From: Candidatus Microgenomates bacterium
GTDB lineage: Bacteria; Patescibacteriota; Microgenomatia; UBA8517; JACQJR01
NCBI GenBank assembly: GCA_016204995.1
Contig: JACQJR010000001.1
Coordinates: 369,132-433,131, forward strand
Direction: 5' to 3'
DNA length: 64,000 nucleotides
Shown: piece after piece, positions 52,850 to 64,000 of the stretch
Numbering within the stretch: position 1 is the first letter of the stretch
Layout of the letters: every line of letters starts with the position of its first letter
Made by a program: the position numbers and the translations under genes
The notes under the pieces: generated by a model
What the model saw: only the letters and a program-made list of their open reading frames with translations
The model's database searches: none
What the model was told of the DNA's origin: nothing

Positions 52850-53158
52850 ATGCCACAGACAAAATCGGCAAAACGGGCTTTAAGAGCCAGCAAGGACCGG
52901 AGATTAAGAAATGCCAAAATTTCTGCCGGTTATAAAAAGGCCATTAAGCTGGCACGCGCCAAAAATACTCCCAGCCTAATAAGCACTGCATATCAAACAT
53001 TGGATATGGCAGCTAAAATTGGCGTTATTCATTGGAAAAAAGCGGCCCGCCTAAAAAGCCAATTAGCCAAAGCTGGACAAAAGACTCCAAGTTCCACCAC
53101 TCAACCAAAAGTCAAGAAATCTTCTAAGAATGTAAGTTTGAAAAGTATTTTTAACTAA
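52850..53158 (+). CDS. rpsT: 30S ribosomal protein S20; the last 9 codons are supplied by the 94-bp repeat element
   Basis: MPQTKSAKRALRASKDRRLRNAKISAGYKKAIK... S20 signature; C-terminus ...NVSLKSIFN encoded by the repeat starting at 53131. Confidence 0.8.
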   Translation: MPQTKSAKRALRASKDRRLRNAKISAGYKKAIKLARAKNTPSLISTAYQTLDMAAKIGVIHWKKAARLKSQLAKAGQKTPSSTTQPKVKKSSKNVSLKSIFN

Positions 53159-53395: not shown

Positions 53396-53470
53396 TGGAG
53401 CGGGAGACGGGACTCGAACCCGCGACAGCCTGCTTGGAAGGCAGTCTGTTACGGCCTAGCTAGTCTCCGC
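53396..53470 (-). tRNA. tRNA-Gly(UCC)-like element with non-canonical 5' half (pseudo-tRNA or integration-site remnant)
   Basis: minus-strand reading gives anticodon arm CTGC-CTTCCAA-GCAG (anticodon UCC), T-arm GCGGG-TTCGAGT-CCCGT and 3' end CTCCCGC-T-CCA (Gly-like C70/G71/C72 and U73). The 5' strand GCGGAGA mispairs and there is no canonical D-arm. Confidence 0.3.
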
Positions 53471-53990
53471 ACGGTCCTGGGGAGGAGGGTCCAGGCAGAC
53501 GGTCACCGACCATGTCCACTGGACACTAACAATATGCACTATTGGGCTGAATCTGGCAAGGCTCTGCAAGGCATTCGGTAATTATTGACGGCAAGCTACT
53601 ACCTGCCTGACGCGACTCTCTCGCGTCAGGCCGAACAACCAGTTATGCCTGTTCTTAGGAAACGGATCAGTTGTCAACCCCCCAATTCAAGGTCAAGAAC
53701 GGCGGTATTCAGAATACCTGTCTTATAATGAGGTCGGCAGGCAGGGCCGCAAATCATGAGCAAGGAGGCAGAGCCACAGCTACATACATCATCAGAAGTA
53801 AGACCATCGAACCCCGCGGTCTCTAACATCCTGCGGGGCATACATCATAGCTTTCGAAGACCCAGGGCGTTAGAAGTCGCTCTATACTCTGTCCCGGTAC
53901 TTGCCGGAGCCGCAAATTGCTATTTGTCGAAACAATTGGCTTCCAGTGACCTAGCTGAGCGCAGAGCAGCGCTCGGTACCATGCTGATTG

Positions 53991-54653
53991 TCACTGGGGT
54001 ATGGGGCTTGGCTCTCCGTTTGAGGAATTTAAAGCCTTGAATAGGCAAACAAGTGCTTCAATAGCCACTGAAGTGAGTATACTACCCAGCAACACAATCG
54101 ATATCTCTCGAAAATCCGGCAGGGCAGGTGACCCAGAGAGCTGGGAGGAATCCCGAGTTATCTCTAGGAACAATAATGCGCCCGAAGTAACCGCTCCACC
54201 TATCCAAATAATCAAAATACTCGTATTAGCGCCAAGAATTACGCAGGCAACCCGGAAGACCCCCAAGACGGATAATGTAAGAAACGAAACCAAGATAGGA
54301 TTGTTGATGCCTGCGGGTGTTCCTGATCCCACTACGCTTCCTAACCCGAGGCTTGTCCACCCCAACATAATGTACACGAACCAAATCTCCGGGAACTTAG
54401 GGTGTCCCTTATCGCCATTCGAGCAGAACACAGGCAGAGCCCACCCGGAGAATCGATTTGGCCAAACCGCTGCTAGAGTTAACGCACCGATTCCGACCGC
54501 TAATGTTAAGTTGCCACTCCGCGCAATTACCTCAAGTAGCACTTCTCGCTCGCTGCATTCGTTTGTACCTCCGATCACGCCAAGGGCAGCGACGAGCAAC
54601 AACATGAGGGCAACACGGCAGATCTGCTGCCCACGTAAAAGAATACCTAGCAT
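53991..54653 (-). CDS. polytopic membrane protein, hypothetical (inside the GC-rich insert)
   Basis: 220 aa, 6 or more hydrophobic segments; the opposing plus-strand ORF 54001-54666 is Arg/Ser/Pro/Thr-rich and looks antisense. Confidence 0.4.
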   Translation of the reverse strand: MLGILLRGQQICRVALMLLLVAALGVIGGTNECSEREVLLEVIARSGNLTLAVGIGALTLAAVWPNRFSGWALPVFCSNGDKGHPKFPEIWFVYIMLGWTSLGLGSVVGSGTPAGINNPILVSFLTLSVLGVFRVACVILGANTSILIIWIGGAVTSGALLFLEITRDSSQLSGSPALPDFREISIVLLGSILTSVAIEALVCLFKALNSSNGEPSPIPQ

Positions 54654-54680
54654 GGCGTCCGTTTAGCTGTTCCTTCTAGG

Positions 54681-55484
54681 TCAAAATAGCTTCAGAGAAA
54701 CGAGGACATGTTGGAAAGCATCGATCATGCTGCCGTCTTCAGCTAAATCGGTACTTGAGACGCCAGTAAGATTGGCCGTCAATACCAAGAACCTCCCTGT
54801 CCTTGGGAACGCCGCGTGGACGCTCTTTCCTAGAGCACCAGCTGTGAAGAAGTGTCCAGTTACGCCGCTGACCGTAACCTCTTTGCGGTTGGCAACGGTG
54901 GGATCATCTTCTGCAGGCAGTGTATACGAATCAGTCAACACAGCTTCAATGCATTTTGGGCCACCTGGTATCTGATCGCGCAAATTGGTAGTTGGAGGGC
55001 AAAGTCTAAAACCCTTCTGGTTCGGCTGCTCGATAGCAACCTTAATCCAGTCTTTGGGGTACTCAATCGAATATCCGCCTTGGTTGTCCGTAAAAGAAGT
55101 CCATGTTGGTTCTGTGAGCGGTTCGGACGGCAAGCTATAAGCGATGTAGCCGCCAGAGGGGTCTCTAAACATCAGGGAATTGGCCGTATCTCCCTGCTGC
55201 TCGACATCTTCTGTGGAAACAGGCTTCCACCGGGCAGACGGTACGGGAGAAGGACTTGATGATACTCTTTGTCCATGATTTTGGATCATCGTTCTATCGA
55301 CCGCTCGCCACCTAACATAGTCGACGGTACCAATAAGGAGAAGTATGCCAACGACTAGCAAAGGAAGAAACGTGGGAGAATGGGCTACGACGCCGAACAC
55401 CTTTCTCATGTGGCTTGTTGGTATGTTTTCCGAACTTTCATCGGGCTTTAGTAGGTTATTGAGGCTGTCATCGGGTGGTTCCAT
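54681..55484 (-). CDS. membrane-anchored hypothetical protein (inside the GC-rich insert)
   Basis: 267 aa; one TM near residue 40 to 60; higher-GC codon usage than the host. Confidence 0.4.
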   Translation of the reverse strand: MEPPDDSLNNLLKPDESSENIPTSHMRKVFGVVAHSPTFLPLLVVGILLLIGTVDYVRWRAVDRTMIQNHGQRVSSSPSPVPSARWKPVSTEDVEQQGDTANSLMFRDPSGGYIAYSLPSEPLTEPTWTSFTDNQGGYSIEYPKDWIKVAIEQPNQKGFRLCPPTTNLRDQIPGGPKCIEAVLTDSYTLPAEDDPTVANRKEVTVSGVTGHFFTAGALGKSVHAAFPRTGRFLVLTANLTGVSSTDLAEDGSMIDAFQHVLVSLKLF

Positions 55485-55510
55485 AGAAAACGATATGAAT
55501 ACTCATAATA

Positions 55511-55876
55511 TCACATGCTTTCAACAGATCCCGGATGTTCCCTGGTCGGCAGTATCTTACCCAATTCGGCAGCGATGTCATTGGTAGTAATATTCAGTTC
55601 GTCGCCAAAGGCACCCACAGTTCTGGCTGCTCTCATAGCAGCCTGACGCGCCCCTGCATTGACAGCTCCGGCGATTTCGGCCGGTGATCGTCCTGCCGCA
55701 ATTTCTACTAGGCGCTCCAGATCGACCAGGTCTGCCCCCGGCTTGCCGCTAAGATGAATTTTCAAGACAAGGCGCCTAGCATCCGGATCAGGTAATCCTA
55801 CTTCGACCTTACTATCGAAGCGGCCCGCGCGGAGCAGTGCCTCATCCAAATCGGACGGACGGTTTGTCGCTGCGAG
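55511..55876 (-). pseudogene. 5'-truncated AAA+ ATPase gene (FtsH/CDC48-type C-terminal fragment) cut at the 94-bp repeat
   Basis: the reading frame runs ...[22 protein letters not shown]... (AAA second region of homology and sensor) with no upstream Walker A or B; the upstream end is replaced by repeat sequence at 55877. Confidence 0.6.
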
Positions 55877-55970
55877 TGTAAGTTTGAAAAGTATTTTTAA
55901 CTAACTTTAGGTTCAATTTTACAAATTTTGATAAATTTTCGAACCTAAATCATTTTTCAAACTTACACTC
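55877..55970. repeat. 94-bp repeat element copy 2 (direct orientation)
   Basis: perfect copy of 53131-53224; flanked on the left by the truncated AAA gene and on the right by the truncated istA. Confidence 0.9.
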
Positions 55971-56956
55971 ATAACGATTTCGCAAATTATAAGCGTAGTA
56001 AACATATCGAAACTGGCCCAGGCGAACAAGCACAAGTTGATTGGGCAAGTTTTGGTAAAATTGAAATTAACGGTAAAGTAAAAAAAGAGAGATTGTCCTG
56101 TTTTGTCTACGTTTTAAGTTATAGTCGGGCTTTATATATTGAATTTACTATTAAACAAAACCTTCAGACTTTAGAAGAATGTCATCTCCATGCCTTTGAA
56201 GAATTGGGTATACCTAAAACTATTGTTTATGACAATATGAAGACCGTAGTTTTAAAAAGAGAAAAATTACCTAAAGATAAATCAATAATACATTACAATC
56301 CAGCATTTGCTGATTTTGCCCAACACTATGATTTCCATCTATGGGCTTGTACGCCTCATTTACCTCGGGCTAAGGGAAAAGTAGAAAGAACAATTAGGTA
56401 TATAAGAAGTAATTTTATGCAAGGTATTAAAGTCAGACGGCAAGGGCTATCTCTGGAAGAGTTAAATAAAAAGGCATTAACGTGGTTAGAAAATGAAGCT
56501 AATGTCAGAATACATAAAGCTACTAATGAACGGCCACTGGATAGTTGGAAACGAGAAAAACCCTATCTACGATTTCCCAAAGATTATCATCCCTATACTA
56601 CCTCACCTTTCATAGTAAGATACAGCACTAAAGACGGAATGGTGCAATATAAATCAAACTTTTACTCCATACCAACAAAATTTTCTAGGAAAAAGCTCTT
56701 GGTAAGAGAAATAAACAAAAATGGCATGATTTTTCTAGAAATTTATCATGAAGATCAACTTATCACTGCTCATGGATTAAATAGAGATCGTGGACAATGG
56801 ATTACACAAGACCAACACCTTTTATCTGAAAACAAAACATCGCCTAAAAGAAAAATCAAGAAAAATTTATTTCACAAAGCAAAAATACAAAAAATAAAAG
56901 ATTTTACCAGAGGATTTGAGTACTACGAAAGGATAATTTCTACCTATAATGTCTAA
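55971..56956 (+). pseudogene. istA: IS21 transposase IstA, N-terminally truncated
   Basis: the open frame from 55971 reads ...KHIETGPGEQAQVDWASFGKIEINGKVKKERLSCFVYVLSYSRALY... (IS21 DDE region) with no start codon or HTH domain; the ORF track starts at a TTG at 56093. Confidence 0.75.
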
Positions 56957-57758
56957 GTCAAAATCTAATCAGTCTTATATTATTCCCGATGGTTTAAAGC
57001 AAAAGGAAAAAATAGATGTTGGGTTAAAGTTATTGAAGCTAGAAGGAATGAGATTTTCTTTTGATGCCTTAGCGCGGGACTATATTAAACAACAAAAAAC
57101 ATCTTATGATTTTTTGGAAAGCTTAACAGAGATTGAGTGTTCATGGAAACATGATAACAGAGTTGAATATTTAATTAAAAATGCCCGCTTTCCATTTATT
57201 AGAAGTATTTATGATTTTGATTTTGATTTTCAACCTAATATTAATAAACAACAAATAATGGAACTTGCTTCCTGCAGGTTTATTGAGCGGGGAGAAAATA
57301 TTATTTTTCTAGGTAAATCTGGAGTAGGTAAAACTCATTTAATTATTTCCTTGGGTATGGAGGCTATTGATAAATTATATTCTGTGCGTTATTTGCACAT
57401 CGGTGATCTAATTGAATCAATAAATAGAACTACAAATAACGGTGACGATTTATATAAACTTCTCAAGAATTTGCTACGCTTCAGATTACTTATTCTTGAC
57501 GAAATGAATCCTTATAACGTAAGTCCAGAATCAAGTAAGTTTTTATTCAAATTATTATGGGAACGTCACGAACAAAGACGTTCTACAATTTTTGCTTCTA
57601 ATCACGATCTTAAAGAGTGGGTTGTATTATTCGGGAGCAAAAATCGAGCCGAGGCAGTGATGGACCGTATTTTAACCCGCCAGATGTATGAAATTATTAC
57701 TATCGAAGGACCTTCTCACCGAGCCGAAAGAGGAGAAAATAGCCTAAAACTGCTTTAA
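56949..57758 (+). CDS. istB: IS21 helper ATPase IstB
   Basis: 269 aa; Walker A FLGKSGVGKTHL, Walker B LLILDEM; overlaps the istA stop. Confidence 0.8.
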   Translation: MSKSKSNQSYIIPDGLKQKEKIDVGLKLLKLEGMRFSFDALARDYIKQQKTSYDFLESLTEIECSWKHDNRVEYLIKNARFPFIRSIYDFDFDFQPNINKQQIMELASCRFIERGENIIFLGKSGVGKTHLIISLGMEAIDKLYSVRYLHIGDLIESINRTTNNGDDLYKLLKNLLRFRLLILDEMNPYNVSPESSKFLFKLLWERHEQRRSTIFASNHDLKEWVVLFGSKNRAEAVMDRILTRQMYEIITIEGPSHRAERGENSLKLL

Positions 57759-57767
57759 AGAAGTAAA

Positions 57768-58424
57768 TTATTCTAAAGATTTACCGCTAATTTCCTTTGC
57801 TTTCTGTCTGAAAAATGAACGCAACTCCTCCAAAGTTAATAGCTTAATCATCTCGGGCAGAAAATCAAAAGTTTCTACTTTTAACAAATCAGCTCCTACA
57901 ACAAAAGGATCCATTTTAACCTTAAATTTTACTCGTACTCCTTCTAATAAATCCCAAATAGTGAATTCTTTTAATAAGAAATAAAGATCAGCAAAATCTT
58001 TGACTTCAGTCCTTTGTTCTATTGCTAATAGTTTATTAATGGATATATCTAACAGTGAATCAATAGCCAGATTATCTACTATCTTACTCTTCTCTACTCG
58101 CTTATAAGGATAAAAGGCAAAATCAACTTTGACAGTCCGTTTGTCTGAAAAAATTAGGTTAAATATCTGGGTATTTTCTACTGCTAGATAATCAACTATA
58201 AAATGTAATTTTTTCTCCCAGAGAGTCATCTTGTCTAAGATAACTTGCGGATCAAATTTCTCTTGGCTGAAAAAATCAAGATCAATAGACTTACGATGTT
58301 GCAGATAATATAAACTTAAAGCTGTCCCGCCTGTAAAATAAAAAATGGAAGAAAGAAAGCGGTCTTTTCTAACTTCATCTAGTAACAATTCCTGCTCGGG
58401 GGTAATAATTCTTACTTGCCCCAT
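57768..58424 (-). CDS. AbiEii/AbiGii-family nucleotidyltransferase toxin (type IV toxin-antitoxin)
   Basis: 218 aa; FYFTGGTALSLYYLQHRKSIDLDFF matches the AbiEii NTase motif hGGTAL...R.S.DLD. Confidence 0.7.
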   Translation of the reverse strand: MGQVRIITPEQELLLDEVRKDRFLSSIFYFTGGTALSLYYLQHRKSIDLDFFSQEKFDPQVILDKMTLWEKKLHFIVDYLAVENTQIFNLIFSDKRTVKVDFAFYPYKRVEKSKIVDNLAIDSLLDISINKLLAIEQRTEVKDFADLYFLLKEFTIWDLLEGVRVKFKVKMDPFVVGADLLKVETFDFLPEMIKLLTLEELRSFFRQKAKEISGKSLE

Positions 58425-58606
58425 ATTAATAACTCTAGTAATCGTTTACGTGTGGGGAAAAGATGAAGATTTTTCCAGTTTTTTTTCACCTGGGATAAAT
58501 TAATTTTCTCCTTTCCGGGACCATAATTAATCATTCTTTCCAAAAGGAGAATTTTTCCTTTTTCGCTTTGCTCAAGTTTCTTTCTGTTATAATCCCACAG
58601 CCACAT
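58412..58606 (-). CDS. small ORF upstream of and overlapping AbiEii; possible minimal AbiEi-like antitoxin remnant
   Basis: 64 aa, basic; position and 13-nt overlap are consistent with an antitoxin partner, but it is much shorter than the roughly 200 aa of a canonical AbiEi. Confidence 0.25.
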   Translation of the reverse strand: MWLWDYNRKKLEQSEKGKILLLERMINYGPGKEKINLSQVKKNWKNLHLFPTRKRLLELLIWGK

Positions 58607-58800
58607 ATCTTTTTTTATTATACTACAAAATCTAATGTTGCAAAAAAATTTACCAAAACCGCTTCAAAGTAATCCTAGACAAACATAGTTTCACTTCATA
58701 TACTGCGTTTAGTAATTAGTAATGAGAGCTGAGAGGTTGGTAAAATAAAACATTCAACTACTAAACTCTAACCTCTAAACTACTAACTACTCATTGACCC

Positions 58801-59337
58801 ATGCCTGTCCGGAAAAAATCAATCAGCCTGCTACCACAAGATGAGTTTGCCGCCTCACCCTTAGGTAGAGTATTGACTTGGGCATTAGGCGCCGGCCGAG
58901 TTATCGTCATTATCACCGAACTGGCAGTCATTTTAGCTTTCCTTTCCCGCTTCTGGCTGGATCGCCGGCTGACTGACTTAAACGAACAAATTGACGCTAA
59001 ATCCCATCTGGTTGCCGCCAGCAGCAACTTTGAAAATCAATTTCGCAGTTTACAAAATCGTATCAATCTAGTAGCTCAAAAACAGAATAAAGACGATTTA
59101 TTTAAAATCGTAAACAATATTGTTACTCTGATTCCCCCAGAAGTAAAACTAACTCAACTTACCGTCAACCAAGAAGACATCCAAATTACCGGTTTAGGCC
59201 TGTCGGAAAACGGCATTGCCAGGTTTTTAAATAAACTAAACAATGCCAAGCTGGGAGAAGCCAAACTAACTCAATTAGCTACCGGCGAGCAGGAATCAGG
59301 CATTAAATTTAGTCTGGTGATTAATACTAAACATTAA
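58801..59337 (+). CDS. pilN: type IV pilus assembly protein PilN-like
   Basis: 178 aa; N-terminal ISLLPQDE motif (PilN INLLP signature), then a TM and periplasmic coiled coil. Confidence 0.6.
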   Translation: MPVRKKSISLLPQDEFAASPLGRVLTWALGAGRVIVIITELAVILAFLSRFWLDRRLTDLNEQIDAKSHLVAASSNFENQFRSLQNRINLVAQKQNKDDLFKIVNNIVTLIPPEVKLTQLTVNQEDIQITGLGLSENGIARFLNKLNNAKLGEAKLTQLATGEQESGIKFSLVINTKH

Positions 59338-59338
59338 C

Positions 59339-59950
59339 ATGCAAAAATCCTGGCGAGCGAGTTACCAAAGATATTTGAAGCTGTTAAGTTTAACCTGGCA
59401 AAAGCGACAAGATATCCGGGCTTATATTGGCATTTTGTTATCTTTATCTGCCATTTCCTTCTTTGGCGCTTTCGCTCTGCGCCCTACCCTAATTACTATT
59501 GGAGAGCTGGTTAGTCAAATTAAAACCCAAAAAGAAACTCTCGCCCAACTTGATCAAAAGGTCCAAAATCTGCAAACAGCCAGCACTAATTTTAATAAAG
59601 TCAAAAGCGATTTAGGTTTAGTTGATCAAGCCATGCCTGCCAGTCCTAAACCAGATGCCTTTTTGAGACAGATAGAGGCCTTAGCCGCCCAAGAAGGAGT
59701 GGCAGTGCAGGATACAAACATAGAAAAAATTATCCTTAAGGGAGAACAAAAATCAAATCCGCCTACTTTCAAAATAACTTTTACCACTGACGGAGAATAT
59801 ATTAATACCGTCTCTTTTTTGCATAAATTGGTGAGTCTTAGACGGGAACTAACGTGGGATTCGCTCACTTTAGGAGCCAAAGCCGGTGCTGACGAGGGTG
59901 GCAGACCAATTTCGCTGACTATTTCCGGCCAGTTAGTTTTTGTACCATGA
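59339..59950 (+). CDS. pilO: type IV pilus assembly protein PilO-like
   Basis: 203 aa; single TM then coiled coil LAQLDQKVQNLQTAS...; immediately after the pilN-like gene. Confidence 0.5.
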   Translation: MQKSWRASYQRYLKLLSLTWQKRQDIRAYIGILLSLSAISFFGAFALRPTLITIGELVSQIKTQKETLAQLDQKVQNLQTASTNFNKVKSDLGLVDQAMPASPKPDAFLRQIEALAAQEGVAVQDTNIEKIILKGEQKSNPPTFKITFTTDGEYINTVSFLHKLVSLRRELTWDSLTLGAKAGADEGGRPISLTISGQLVFVP

Positions 59951-60165
59951 AAAAAACATCTCAACCCAGAATTGTCACTTTTGCCTTGTTAACTACCATT
60001 ACTATGCTCACCTGGGTAACTTTTGAAGTCTGGCATTCTTTTAACAAACCAGCTCCAATCCAAGTGGAACAAAAGCTGCTGGCGCCTCTTAATCCTCAAT
60101 TAGATACTAAAACTATAGAAGAACTACGGGATAAATTATTTTTTGAAGGAGGAGTAAACCCATGA
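59947..60165 (+). CDS. small membrane protein in the pilus-like cluster
   Basis: 72 aa with one TM; translationally coupled to its neighbours by overlaps. Confidence 0.35.
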   Translation: MKKTSQPRIVTFALLTTITMLTWVTFEVWHSFNKPAPIQVEQKLLAPLNPQLDTKTIEELRDKLFFEGGVNP

Positions 60166-61580
60166 GGAAAGAACGGACTATTCCCACCGTCATTGGTCTA
60201 GTGTTACTGCTGGCCGGGGTAGGAATTTCCGTTCTGCTAGTTCAGCGCCAGCAGTTTTTTAAACTAACGGCGGCGCCGGAAATTACCCCCAAAGATGTCA
60301 GAATCACCAATGTAACTGATGGCGGCTTTACTGTTTCCTGGATGACAGACAAAGAAACCATCGGTTTTGTTTCCTTTGGCGATTCCACCTCATTGGGTCA
60401 GATAGCCCAAGATGATCAAGGGACCAAGAGTTCTCCCTTACACCATGTTACCATCTCCAATTTATCTACCAATACTCGCTACTTTTTCAAAATCGGCTCC
60501 GATCGCGACACCTTTGACCAGGATGGGAAGCCGTGGGAGCAAAAAACCGCGACACAACTTTCACCTCGGACAGCCGATGTCATCTCCGGTACTGTCAAAA
60601 ATAGCCAAGGCGCGCCGGCAAGCGACGCTTTAGTCTATGTCACCCTGCCGCAAGCCGCCCCTCTCTCTACCACCACCGATAGTTCCGGTAGTTTTTCTTT
60701 GTCACTGGCCCCTGCCCGCACCACCAATTTATCTTCCTATGTCACCTACGATAAAAATAATGCCCTCTTGTCTATTTTCGTCCAGGCAGGAAGCGGTCAA
60801 GTATCTTCGGCCCAAGTAGCAGCCGCTAGCGCTCACCCTGTCCCGCCTTTAATTTTGGGCCAGACTCATGATTTTCGTCGCTTAAGCCAGACTGGCGAAG
60901 CTACCTCTCCCGGCGCTGATTTAGCCTTACCATCGGCAGCGCCGACTGCTTCGCCCGAAAGCGCCAGCTCGGGTTTTAATTTAAACCCGATTGCTTCCAG
61001 CTCGCCCGCACCCTCGGTAGATAAACTAACTATTGATAATCCCAAAGAGGGAGAAAATATCAGCACTAAAACTCCGGAGTTTCGTGGTCAGGGTCCTAAA
61101 GGCGTTAAAGTTAACTTAACTCTTAACTCCACTACCCCCATCACCGGTACCGCCACAGTAGCCGCAAATGGCACTTGGACCTGGACGCCGCCCCAAACCT
61201 TAACTACCGGTAGTCACATCCTAATTGCCACTCTTACCGATAGCAAAGGTCAAAAACAAACCACTTCGCGCAATTTTAGCGTCTTAGCCAAAGCGGCTAA
61301 TTTACCAGCTTTTACCGCCACCGGTTCGGCTCAAGCCAGCCCCGGTCCAACCGGGGCCAGTCCCAGTGCCACGCCTCGCGTTACTGCTAGTCCTTCTGCT
61401 TCACCTCGAGCTAGTATTATACCCACTGTGGCCCCTCGCATCTCTATGCCTTCTACCGAATCTGGGGTACCCGTTTCTGGCGACTTGACAAATACTATTG
61501 CAGTTTTCATACTGGGTATAACCTCCATTTTTGGAGGGGCTCTCTTGTTCATAAAAACAAGAGGGAATAATTACCAATAA
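60162..61580 (+). CDS. cell-surface protein: N-terminal signal anchor, FN3-like domain, carboxypeptidase-regulatory-like domain, Thr/Ser/Pro-rich spacers, C-terminal TM plus basic tail (sortase-substrate-like architecture)
   Basis: 472 aa; VRITNVTDGGFTVSWMTDKETIGFVSFG (FN3/purple-acid-phosphatase N-terminal-like); ISGTVKNSQGAPASDALVYV (CarboxypepD_reg-like); C-terminus ...VPVSGDLTNTIAVFILGITSIFGGALLFIKTRGNNYQ. Confidence 0.55.
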   Translation: MRKERTIPTVIGLVLLLAGVGISVLLVQRQQFFKLTAAPEITPKDVRITNVTDGGFTVSWMTDKETIGFVSFGDSTSLGQIAQDDQGTKSSPLHHVTISNLSTNTRYFFKIGSDRDTFDQDGKPWEQKTATQLSPRTADVISGTVKNSQGAPASDALVYVTLPQAAPLSTTTDSSGSFSLSLAPARTTNLSSYVTYDKNNALLSIFVQAGSGQVSSAQVAAASAHPVPPLILGQTHDFRRLSQTGEATSPGADLALPSAAPTASPESASSGFNLNPIASSSPAPSVDKLTIDNPKEGENISTKTPEFRGQGPKGVKVNLTLNSTTPITGTATVAANGTWTWTPPQTLTTGSHILIATLTDSKGQKQTTSRNFSVLAKAANLPAFTATGSAQASPGPTGASPSATPRVTASPSASPRASIIPTVAPRISMPSTESGVPVSGDLTNTIAVFILGITSIFGGALLFIKTRGNNYQ

Positions 61581-61663
61581 TTACCAATATCCGATAATAC
61601 CAATGCATCAATCATTGGAAATTGGACATTTGAAATTGGTAGTATTGGTATTATTTTATTATT

Positions 61664-63382
61664 ATGCCCGACGAATCTGCCCAGAAGCCTGTTTCACCCG
61701 CTAGTCCTACAGTCGGACCGGCTACCCCGCCTCCTGTCCATGAACCCATCACTCCTAACTCTGAACCATCTATGCCGGAAGCAACCCACGATTTCCCGAC
61801 GATTCCCACTTCAGAACAAACTATTCCTACCATGCCGCCAACAGATCCCACTTCCCCTCCCTTCGGCTCCAGTTCGACTTCGCTCACTGCGGGCGCTCAG
61901 GGCCTGCGGCCTACTGCACAACCGGCACCAGCCGCTCCCAATTTTAGCCCGGGCGGCATCCCGCCTGTCATTACTCCACCCTCGCCCCGCCGGCCCAAAG
62001 CCAAAATTGTCGGAGCGATACTGGCTTTATTGATTTTAGTGGTGGGTATTCCGGTCGGAGTTTTTTTAGTCCAGCAAAATCAAGAAGTCCGCGAAAAAGC
62101 TTCTACTTGTCAAGATGATTGTAACAGCGCGCTCACTAGTTGTAATAATCAATGTAATCAAAATTTTGACAGCTGTACGGGCACTTGTGGGCCTGCAGAT
62201 GGCTCTACAGAATACGAAAGCTGCTATGGCGCTTGTCAAGGTGCACAAAACAGTTGCAATAGTGGGTGTGGTGGCGAATTTGATTTTTGTCTCACTTCTT
62301 GCGGCAGCACCACTTGTCCTGACGGCATTTGCAGCGATGAAGAATTTAATAATGGTTCCTGTGCTCAAGACTGCGGTTCGCCTGGATCAAACGTCTGCGG
62401 CGATGGAACCTGTAGCGATGAAGAATTTAATAACAACAATTGTCCTCAAGATTGTACGCCAACCGATGGGGACGGGGATGGTGGGGGTGGAGAAAGTAAC
62501 TATTGTATAGAAGCTGGGTATCATCAATGCACTCCTGGTAGCCCAGCCGGAACTTGTACCAATAATGGTCAAACCTGTACCTCTTATGAGCATTATGCCT
62601 GTAATTATGGAGGGCAGAATTACTGCGACGCACCGATTTGCGATACCAATTCTTGTGGTGGTGGAGATGACGGCGGAGGTGGTGGAGGCTGCCAATACAA
62701 TAACGCCTATGATGCCGGCTTATTAGCCGACAAACCAAATCCTAATGACCAATGCGGCACTCAAGATGGCATTTATTGTAACAATGGCAATACTAATTTC
62801 TGTTGTTACGGCGATGGAAATTGTTTTGCAGGCCAGCAAGGATCCTGTACTAATAACGGCAATGGCAGTATCACCACTACTCAATCTGCCCAAATTATTG
62901 AATTCTCGTGTCCCGGCCAGACTTCAGCGACGGGCAGCTGTTCGGAAAATCAAACCTCTAAAGGTAATCAACCGGCCGGCACTTACACCACGGGCGGCAG
63001 CGGCTGCGGCGGCTTCCAGATAGATGCAGTGGGTCTGTGCGGCAGCTATAAATTTGTTTCCTGCGGGGGCGGTGGCGAGCCAGAGGTTAACAATCAATGT
63101 TTGAACATTAAAGCTTATGATACTAATTGGAAACAGCTGTCAACCAGTGAACTGGCTCAACTTAAAGTGGGAGATCAAATTCGGGTGGCGGTTAACGGCA
63201 ATACTACTTCCGGGACGTTAAATAAAGCCAGATTTAGAATTAATAATAGTTCGTCCTGGCAAGAAACTACGGCTAAAAATCCCAACGGCGAATTCTATAT
63301 TTCCGTGACTATTTCTCAAGGACCACCTACTTGGAAATTTGATGCCCAATTACATCATCAAGAAAGTGATACTTGGTTCTAA
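61664..63382 (+). CDS. type II membrane protein with Pro-rich N-terminal cytoplasmic region, one TM, and a very cysteine-rich repeat ectodomain (about 70 Cys) ending in a beta-rich C-terminal domain
   Basis: 572 aa; TM IVGAILALLILVVGIPVGVFLV; repeated units CPDGICSDEEFNNGSCAQDCGSP and CGDGTCSDEEFNNNNCPQDCTPT plus many CxxxC pairs; Gly-rich spacers. Confidence 0.6.
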   Translation: MPDESAQKPVSPASPTVGPATPPPVHEPITPNSEPSMPEATHDFPTIPTSEQTIPTMPPTDPTSPPFGSSSTSLTAGAQGLRPTAQPAPAAPNFSPGGIPPVITPPSPRRPKAKIVGAILALLILVVGIPVGVFLVQQNQEVREKASTCQDDCNSALTSCNNQCNQNFDSCTGTCGPADGSTEYESCYGACQGAQNSCNSGCGGEFDFCLTSCGSTTCPDGICSDEEFNNGSCAQDCGSPGSNVCGDGTCSDEEFNNNNCPQDCTPTDGDGDGGGGESNYCIEAGYHQCTPGSPAGTCTNNGQTCTSYEHYACNYGGQNYCDAPICDTNSCGGGDDGGGGGGCQYNNAYDAGLLADKPNPNDQCGTQDGIYCNNGNTNFCCYGDGNCFAGQQGSCTNNGNGSITTTQSAQIIEFSCPGQTSATGSCSENQTSKGNQPAGTYTTGGSGCGGFQIDAVGLCGSYKFVSCGGGGEPEVNNQCLNIKAYDTNWKQLSTSELAQLKVGDQIRVAVNGNTTSGTLNKARFRINNSSSWQETTAKNPNGEFYISVTISQGPPTWKFDAQLHHQESDTWF

Positions 63383-63387
63383 AAAAT

Positions 63388-64000
63388 ATGTCTAATAGAA
63401 TTAACTTAAAAAGTATTTTAATTATTATTGCCACTGTCATATTGGCAGCCATTGCTGTTTTTACGGCCTGGCGGCTTTACCAATTAAGAAGCGAACCGGT
63501 CGCTCCCACTGCTCCTAAAAAAGCTCCGGCGGCAGAAAATAAAGCCTGTTCCGCTTTGACATTCACCATTGCTACGGCTACTGCTTCTCCCACCGCCACT
63601 CCTGTTCCCTGCACTGTTACCTGCGCCCAAGCTGATCTTAATAAAGATAATAAAGTTACTATTTTAGATTTGACTAAACTGGGCCAATGTACGGGCAAAA
63701 CTCCTACTGGAAACTGTGCCGGCACCGACTTAAATAAAGATAATGTTGTTGACCAAAAAGATGCTGACTGCGTCAAAACCGTCTGGCAGCAAACCTGCTC
63801 GGCAGCTACAGCTAGTCCGACTGCCTCGCCGACCAGTACGGCGACAGCCCGACCAACTGCCACCGCAACTGCTGCTCCTACCTCTTCTGCAGCACCAACT
63901 GCGACTTCTGCACCTGCCGCCACCGCTACGACTCGGGCGGGAACAGCCGCACCTACTGCAACTGCCGCTGCCCTACCAGTAGCCGGCATGTCCTGGCCGG
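63388..64000 (+). CDS. dockerin-repeat-containing membrane-anchored protein (partial; runs off the window end; not in the ORF track)
   Basis: my translation from the ATG at 63388 gives MSNRINLKSILIIIATVILAAIAVFTAW... then two dockerin-like Ca-binding repeats ADLNKDNKVTILDLTKL and DLNKDNVVDQKDADCV, followed by Thr/Ala/Pro-rich linker; no stop before 64000. Confidence 0.6.
   Translation, partial: MSNRINLKSILIIIATVILAAIAVFTAWRLYQLRSEPVAPTAPKKAPAAENKACSALTFTIATATASPTATPVPCTVTCAQADLNKDNKVTILDLTKLGQCTGKTPTGNCAGTDLNKDNVVDQKDADCVKTVWQQTCSAATASPTASPTSTATARPTATATAAPTSSAAPTATSAPAATATTRAGTAAPTATAAALPVAGMSWP

Follow-up and report, generated by a model that had tools for sequence, protein, structure and literature searches.

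We analysed a 64,000-nucleotide stretch from the genome of a Candidatus Microgenomates bacterium, which is uncultured and ultra-small (contig JACQJR010000001.1; hereafter the window), in which a plus-strand open reading frame (ORF) at 61664–63382 encodes a protein of very high cysteine content. The ORF begins with ATG, and its 572-aa product is deposited at NCBI as hypothetical protein HY404_02235, Candidatus Microgenomates bacterium. By profile comparison, the protein belongs to a large, undescribed family of the Candidate Phyla Radiation (CPR) that is defined by a C-terminal immunoglobulin (Ig)-like head and has no Pfam or NCBIfam model. As judged from alignments, its cysteine-rich region is a hypervariable stalk set between a conserved membrane anchor and the conserved head. 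The gene is the fifth of six conserved operon genes starting at pilN. Our preferred reading, held with about even confidence, is that the protein would be a bitopic, N-in/C-out component of the envelope that assists the type IV pilus alignment complex, with a disulfide-bonded stalk and a link to a partner protein.

Results

The family becomes visible only through its head domain. A word-indexed homologue search with the full protein returned just three relatives, with low-complexity candidates filling the list. Aligning these three showed conservation of the start of the N-terminal tail, the transmembrane (TM) helix with its juxtamembrane motif, and a C-terminal domain of ~97 aa; the Cys-rich middle could not be aligned. 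A search with a head-domain alignment, followed by an exhaustive profile search, recovered the family. The C-terminal-domain profile matches 1331 representative proteins at E ≤ 1e-3 and 861 at E ≤ 1e-10, and since representatives are clusters at 50% identity, the family contains at least 1331 clusters. The cysteine-rich protein itself (P0001) matches at E = 2.0e-37 over aa 471–572, and the domain is C-terminal in the best 150 of the 1331 representatives. The initial annotation, made from the sequence without database searches, had allowed for a clear match to a characterised family; for the cysteine-rich protein, Pfam and NCBIfam gave none at E ≤ 1 and a PDB sequence search gave none at E ≤ 10. 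A search with the stalk alone (aa 145–342) found no relative, a weak negative given that the query protein itself was not recovered.

The gene is genuine. Three independent assemblies carry an identical 572-aa protein: an NCBI Microgenomates metagenome-assembled genome, on a 609-kb contig, and the Logan assemblies of SRR12113430 and SRR12113384. This identity excludes an assembly artefact through collapsed reads, an outcome that the initial annotation had kept in view.

Family members share a common plan. We took architecture and cysteine counts on 126 full-length members among the best 150 of 1331, and all 126 consist of a tail, a TM helix, an LVxQQQDIREKA motif, a variable linker and a head. 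In the Microgenomates protein the tail spans aa 1–114 (61664–62005, plus strand), is ~26% Pro and free of Cys, and begins MPDES; tails of relatives mostly begin M[PD]D[QE]N. A single TM helix (aa ~115–137) follows with the juxtamembrane motif FLVQQNQEVREKA, its version of the family consensus (62006–62101, plus strand), and a basic run, KKK/RRPKAK, lies on the N side of the helix. These basic residues and the family-wide architecture support a topology in which the N-terminal tail would be cytoplasmic and the remainder an ectodomain. The family-defining head, an Ig/Fn3-like beta-sandwich, occupies aa 476–572 (63089–63379, plus strand) and carries near its start, in the sequence QC-LNIKAYD, a conserved cysteine, Cys479 (codon 63098–63100, plus strand). 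Between anchor and head the linker varies from about 10 to about 500 residues, and minimal members such as P0014 and P0058 are nearly linker-less. Conservation follows the same division: identity to the closest relative is 72% in the anchor motif, 64% in the pre-head module (aa 343–475) and 56% in the head, and it is 32% in the stalk and 35% in the tail.

Cysteine is confined to the region between anchor and head and the very start of the head. All 41 Cys of the protein lie within aa 149–479, where they make up 12.4% of residues, compared with 9.4% of the post-TM ectodomain, 7.2% of the whole protein and a mean of 0.31% in the window's other 38 large ORFs. The stalk opens with two 6-Cys units, CX3C-X6-CX3C-X6-CX3C (aa 149–175 and 187–213; 62108–62302, plus strand), that have an 11-residue Cys periodicity, the spacing across aa 149–213 reading 4,7,4,7,4, then 12, then 4,7,4,7,4. 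Such spacing is not a product of chance, because 0 of 20000 shuffles of aa 149–479 reached the four matches to CX3C-X6-CX3C that we observed. The two units are identical to each other at 12 of 28 aa and show no repeat at the DNA level; the initial annotation had described this second duplication in loose terms only. Next come two 27-aa, 4-Cys units, C-x-D-G-x-C-S-D-E-E-F-N-N-x2-C-x-Q-D-C (aa 218–244 and 245–271; 62315–62476, plus strand), and then an irregular Cys-rich segment (aa 281–331) flanked by the Gly/Asp spacers GDGDGGGG (aa 269–276) and GGGDDGGGGGG (aa 332–342; 62468–62689 in all, plus strand). A second, semi-conserved Cys-containing module (aa 343–469; 62690–63070, plus strand) follows; it is 64% identical to relative P0002, and its distal part (aa ~390–469) holds a CGxxQ(I/V)D element that recurs in relatives. 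Much of this layout had been described correctly before, including the ORF itself, the roughly 12% Cys of the ectodomain, both Gly spacers, and a Pro-rich and cytoplasmic N-terminus ahead of a single TM segment.

The internal repeats, which first drew attention to the gene, are real but modest. The initial annotation had placed them at 62310–62385 and 62395–62470, an 85-nt offset that is out of register with the true 81-nt period, and had called them near-identical, which holds only for the core DGxCSDEEFNN. At the DNA level this core (62321–62352 against 62402–62433) is 32 nt long with 27 identical positions, the final 20 nt being exact; across the full 81-nt units (62315–62395 against 62396–62476), 47 of 81 nt (58%) and 15 of 27 aa are identical. 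Tandem Repeats Finder reported no tandem array inside the ORF, and with just two diverged 27-aa units the idea of a contingency locus is not supported. Hardly any other family member has the CX3C rows or the CxDGxC...CxxDC units, and the latter have no match at E ≤ 1 in Pfam or NCBIfam to the Myxococcus cysteine-rich repeat TIGR02232 or to DUF4215. Seen against its relatives, these eye-catching repeats are lineage-specific modules or decoration of the stalk, not the conserved or functional core.

Structure prediction resolves the head and, with less confidence, the module before it. AlphaFold models the head at a predicted local distance difference test (pLDDT) of 92.9 as an all-beta sandwich that looks complete by itself, with a conserved His564/His565 pair. 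For the stalk, the initial annotation had proposed predicting the repeat unit; a prediction of aa 140–572 was made, and it yielded no confident stalk fold. In this model a helix runs on from the membrane to aa ~158, and aa 390–469 form a beta-rich module at moderate confidence (pLDDT 63–82). Weak CusF_Ec matches in 7 of 15 head domains trace to a 21-aa 'LKAGDKVRFTV' hairpin outside the metal site, and the likeness was rejected. We also rejected a sortase-anchored surface protein or pilin, as the protein ends ...HHQESDTWF with neither a hydrophobic tail nor an LPxTG-type motif. Pfam showed no PilP or Secretin domain in the protein, and no cohesin fold or profile, which might have made it a partner of the downstream dockerin-like insert, was seen in the head.

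Cysteine counts obey a parity rule across the family. The ectodomain count is odd in 114 of 126 full-length relatives, over totals from 1 to 45, and none of the 126 cytoplasmic tails contains Cys. The rule amounts to an even number of stalk Cys plus one head Cys; here, 41 is 40 plus C479. The C479 position is Cys in 99% of 159 aligned relatives, and it provides the sole Cys of several minimal members (P0058, P0106, P0119, P0124 and P0136). This parity favours disulfides over metal clusters, since the stalk Cys appear to be even in number as intramolecular pairs would be, and clusters need not be even. The stalk is thus probably disulfide-knotted. The need for an oxidative folding route, raised in the initial annotation, is borne out by stalk counts that stay even in relatives with 0 to 44 stalk Cys. 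Its further remark that such an ectodomain would be unusual for these bacteria is not: Cys makes up 8% or more of the ectodomain in 22 of the 126 relatives. Among the families enriched in CPR is an MdbA-like thiol-disulfide oxidoreductase, often beside VKOR, and nearly all Microgenomates have a sortase (Meheust et al. 2019, PMC6744442). An oxidative folding route in this lineage is plausible.

The gene has a fixed place in a pilN-pilO operon. In the window, all on the plus strand, pilN (58801–59337; Pfam PilN, E = 1e-7) and pilO (59339–59950; Pfam PilO, E = 1.3e-7), both above the gathering cut-off, are followed by a gene for a small bitopic protein with no Cys (59947–60165) and one for a 472-aa Fn3/CarboxypepD_reg/Big_13 protein (60162–61580; Big13 below), also without Cys, that has an N-terminal signal anchor and a C-terminal 'VPVSG' plus TM end resembling a sorting signal. 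The cysteine-rich gene comes next, and the sixth gene starts at 63388 and runs to 64000 and beyond the window end. The order murJ (minus strand), then rpsT, pilN, pilO, small protein, Big13, head family and the downstream ('dock') family recurs in every locus with enough flank, across distinct Microgenomates, Woesebacteria and Patescibacteria genomes. An INLLP-type motif at the N-terminus of PilN, which we take to be the PilM-binding peptide of the PilM–PilN literature, is kept in 21 of 21 loci carrying pilN. We found no published account of this operon in the literature (Woesebacteria with pilN).

The downstream family appears to hold a matching spare cysteine. It lies directly 3' of the head-family gene in 25 of 25 loci examined (L001–L025). 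In the Microgenomates genome its full product is 224 aa long (L026 7448–8122; Pfam Dockerin_1, E = 2e-6) and contains, in order, a signal anchor, a short, conserved strand carrying a lone Cys ('ACSALTFTI'), a dockerin-like insert with 6 Cys, a linker rich in Pro, Thr and Ala, and an 'LPVAG' motif with a hydrophobic tail. Its 7 Cys fit a family in which the count is odd in 24 of 27 sequences (1, 3, 5, 9, 15, 17, 23 or 29), the three even exceptions being masked or over-extended ORFs, and in which the conserved lone Cys sits in 'C(T/S)ALTFT'. PilN, PilO, the small protein and Big13 are Cys-free at almost every locus. Two further observations join the families. Fused paralogues carry the partner's Cys-strand, a Pro/Thr linker and a head in one chain and have exactly 2 Cys (P0062, P0118, and L005 8293–9006 and 9013–9729), and L019 carries a duplication that takes in the head gene and its neighbour as one unit. 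An intermolecular disulfide from C479 to the downstream spare Cys would most likely be the most economical explanation, because paired spare cysteines, fusions and joint duplication are the usual signs of cooperating proteins.

Genomic surroundings

Several features of the locus are particular to this genome or vary among its relatives. The island at 53396–58700 splits rpsT (52850–53158) from pilN (58801), which adjoin in nearly all related genomes. It contains a tRNA-Gly(TCC) gene (53396–53470), a stretch of higher GC content where both strands carry overlapping ORFs (53756–55849), an IS21-type pair formed by istA (56093–56956; 5'-shortened, with an rve match from profile position 26 and a TTG start) and istB (56949–57758), and an AbiEii toxin-like gene on the minus strand (57768–58424). 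Immediately upstream of the cysteine-rich gene, a spacer of 83 nt (61581–61663) takes the place of the 1–10 nt that separate the genes in related genomes. Within the spacer lies a small tandem repeat of AT-rich sequence, CATTGGAAATTGGA x1.9 at 61613–61639, followed by ATTGGTAGT x2.3. No Shine-Dalgarno sequence is obvious before the ATG, and a terminator scan found no terminator-like site between the upstream gene and the cysteine-rich gene.

Other operon products vary as well. The small bitopic protein is 72 aa long here and 97–137 aa in orthologues (e.g. L002 1890–2270); the window copy keeps its TM segment and the conserved 'PLxPxLDxxxL' and has lost the acidic or Pro/Thr-rich C-terminal tail. 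Orthologues of Big13 in L002–L025 end in LPETG or LPEAG in some genomes and in VPVSG/PESG/PDSG then LTPT in others, with a hydrophobic segment and a basic tail after the motif, so that two of the six operon products look wall-anchored. Extra head-gene copies stand in tandem at L005 8293–9729, L009 9034–10410 and L019 4276–9018, and include short fused two-Cys forms. Stored gene calls place an Ala/Val-rich minus-strand ORF (63477–63989; L026 7537–8076) over the downstream gene. The Dockerin_1 match, the LPVAG sorting signal and the orthologues in all 25 loci identify the plus-strand ORF from 63388, not the minus-strand call, as the real and conserved gene. Three unrelated exported products of the operon share a Gln/Arg-rich juxtamembrane segment after the N-terminal helix: LLVQRQQFFKLTA (60162–60290), FLVQQNQEVREKA (62063–62101) and RLYQLRSEPVAPTAP (63388–63500). 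Rather than a standard signal-peptidase site, the segment may represent a trait of this lineage connected with export or retention.

Discussion

In the working model that we propose, the protein would serve the type IV pilus alignment complex as an accessory. Its cytoplasmic tail, disordered and rich in Pro, would lead into one TM helix that, with its juxtamembrane motif, anchors the protein. The fast-evolving stalk, rich in Cys, Gly and Asn, would be made rigid by about 20 intramolecular disulfides and would fix how far the head stands from the membrane, be that inside the cell wall or past it. A disulfide between C479 and the downstream spare Cys would then couple a membrane-anchored to a wall-anchored component covalently. 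A more ambitious version, which we offer tentatively and think rather unlikely, is that the two neighbouring CPR-specific families, each with exactly one unpaired Cys, lock by disulfide, perhaps with strand augmentation of the head, into a covalent membrane-to-wall bridge that together with the Cys-free Big13 and the small TM protein forms a monoderm CPR counterpart of PilP/PilQ, the outer part of the type IV pilus machine.

Several points weigh against this model. The family is known from sequence and predicted structure alone, and the type IV pilus link comes from gene order alone, with pilM, pilB and pilC absent from the window and the flanks examined. Family members are kin, so their parity counts are not independent, even if the rule does span very different totals. 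AlphaFold gives aa 156–389 no confident fold (pLDDT 30–45) from which a disulfide pattern could be read, and the head, which looks complete alone, has structural matches only to generic Ig, Fn3 and carbohydrate-binding module folds that indicate no ligand. Within the window, a search for DsbA- or VKOR-like CxxC proteins turned up nothing but zinc-ribbon-like ORFs and RpoC. The length of the stalk shows no correlation with that of the partner's linker (Spearman rho -0.10, p=0.66, n=24). The spare Cys could instead homodimerise, stay free or bind metal with His564/His565.

The strongest alternative, one we regard as possible though clearly less probable, keeps the adhesin proposal of the initial annotation alive. 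The protein would be a stand-alone adhesin or a host- or substrate-recognition factor, its head or variable stalk binding a partner-cell surface or polysaccharide; the stalk would vary by diversifying selection, and the vicinity of pilN-pilO would reflect mere co-expression of surface structures. Stalk and tail do evolve much faster than the rest, and stalk modules are swapped wholesale between relatives. Low-Z structural neighbours of the head include carbohydrate-binding modules and Ig-like adhesin domains, CPR bacteria rely on cell-cell contact (PMC6744442; PMC11623550), and some genomes have tandem extra copies (L005, L009, L019). However, with a conserved head and a variable stalk the ligand would be constant across lineages, the fixed place in a six-gene pilN-pilO operon points to a machine component, and an adhesin leaves the spare Cys shared with the neighbouring family unexplained.

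A role in a donor-strand-assembled fibre seems improbable. Under this proposal the protein would be part of a Pam-like CPR pilus or fibre, its head accepting, or being augmented by, the downstream 'C-T-A-L-T-F-T-I' strand, possibly with a disulfide lock. The downstream protein has the layout of PamR, with an N-terminal strand, a linker and a C-terminal anchor; fused paralogues hold strand and head in one chain; and Pam pili, whose homologues are reported in Microgenomatia, join Ig-like domains by donor-strand exchange. Yet no donor strand is needed for the head to be predicted, at pLDDT 93, as a sandwich that looks complete. In place of a cleavable signal and a nine-strand N-terminal domain after it, the protein carries a long cytoplasmic tail and is anchored near its N-terminus, Pfam finds no PapD-like chaperone among the neighbours (PilN, PilO, Fn3/CarboxypepD_reg/Big_13 and Dockerin_1 only), and the pam operon is reported to lie beside ATP synthase genes, not pilN-pilO.

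Metal binding, the sink suggested by the initial annotation, is less probable still, and we give it little weight. On this reading the cell-surface ligands for Cu(I), Zn or Fe-S would be the dense Cys of the CX3C rows, CxC and CC; the very high Cys density, the conserved His-His pair in the head and an 11-residue spacing of CX3C rows that recalls the helix-lining Cys of copper storage proteins all speak for it. The parity rule speaks against it, with stalk Cys even in 114 of 126 relatives whatever the total, as does the lack of conservation of Cys positions even in the closest relative. No metallothionein, Csp or CusF family matches the protein; where CusF_Ec scored weakly, the match covers the 21-aa hairpin outside the metal site. 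Gly, Asn, Ser and Thr abound in the stalk, and the AlphaFold model shows no helices beyond aa ~158. For the toxin-like module also floated there we found no evidence of any kind. That the ORF is an assembly error across repeats, or low-complexity DNA with no true gene product, is scarcely conceivable despite its repetitive, low-complexity composition and metagenomic origin, given an identical 572-aa product in three independent assemblies, repeats that are short and diverged, and same-architecture homologues in hundreds of clusters with synteny kept.

CPR/Patescibacteria make up a large share of bacterial diversity and depend on cell-cell contact through pili and surface proteins that are mostly annotated as hypothetical. 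One such hypothetical protein now has a place in a large family without a model, whose position is fixed in an operon of six genes that begins with pilN-pilO. Should the four further genes prove to be the outer, wall-crossing part of the type IV pilus machine in these bacteria, which are thought to be without an outer membrane, they would fill a known gap, since CPR have so far yielded no PilQ. The 2n+1 Cys rule in two neighbouring families amounts to a simple, directly testable hypothesis of a specific intermolecular disulfide. What makes the system worth following is this paired rule, together with an undescribed family and its fixed pilN-pilO operon place; the repeats by themselves matter little.

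Comparison with known systems

The nearest described system is the CPR Pam pilus, in which donor-strand exchange joins Ig-like domains; it has a single-domain tip pilin, PamT, and an anchor, PamR, that has an N-terminal donor strand and a C-terminal TM segment (Troman et al., bioRxiv 10.64898/2026.03.03.709456). Its homologues are reported in Microgenomatia, and the pam operon adjoins ATP synthase genes (bioRxiv 10.64898/2026.03.03.709456). As in Pam, CPR-specific Ig-like envelope proteins with paired Cys occur here beside a partner with an N-terminal strand and a C-terminal anchor, and no outer-membrane machinery is involved. Unlike Pam, with its ATP synthase neighbourhood and PapD-like chaperones, the genes here lie in a pilN-pilO operon, and the protein combines an N-terminal anchor and cytoplasmic tail with a complete-looking head, which sets it apart from Pam by description. 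The cleavable signal peptide, nine-strand N-terminal sandwich and linker strand of Pam pilins have no equivalent: aa 156–389 contain no confident beta-sandwich, and a 114-aa tail precedes the TM helix. With regard to likeness to PamA/B/E/T, PDB searches among entries released up to April 2026 gave no matching chain. We would therefore not file the cysteine-rich protein as a Pam component, because its operon differs, PapD-like chaperones and Pam pilin architecture are missing, and the predicted head looks complete alone.

In diderm bacteria, pilN-pilO is followed by pilP and pilQ. The cysteine-rich protein resembles PilP/PilQ and accessories of the TsaP/FimV type in being encoded right after pilN-pilO and in the envelope-spanning or wall-associated accessory role that we propose for it. 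It differs in having no sequence or fold relation to PilP/PilQ and no Secretin or PilP match in Pfam, so that this role would follow from gene order only. CPR bacteria are without PilQ, and the organism presumably has no outer membrane (PMC6744442).

A monoderm parallel comes from Actinobacteria, where MdbA/VKOR-dependent, sortase-handled FimA and SpaA are likewise Ig-like domain proteins that are exported and need extracytoplasmic disulfides. Neighbours of the cysteine-rich gene bear LPxTG-like sorting signals, as in that system, and the CPR MdbA-like family is the presumed oxidase (PMC6744442). Unlike FimA and SpaA, the cysteine-rich protein has no C-terminal sorting signal or pilin motif, contains ~20 putative disulfides rather than one or two, and carries a cytoplasmic tail.

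Two eukaryotic or more distant comparisons concern cysteine pattern. Giardia variant-specific surface proteins have about 10–12% Cys and place a variable Cys-rich region on a conserved anchor; this is an analogy only, as they are eukaryotic, use CXXC and a C-terminal anchor, and have no conserved head, no operon and no homology to the protein described here. In the Tenebrio antifreeze beta-helix a 12-residue repeat places two Cys in each coil, and in copper storage proteins Cys line the helices. The stalk has no sequence match to either, no fold in AlphaFold and a pattern confined to this protein; what it has in common with them is the pattern only, two Cys per 11-residue CX3C-X6 in two runs of three repeats.

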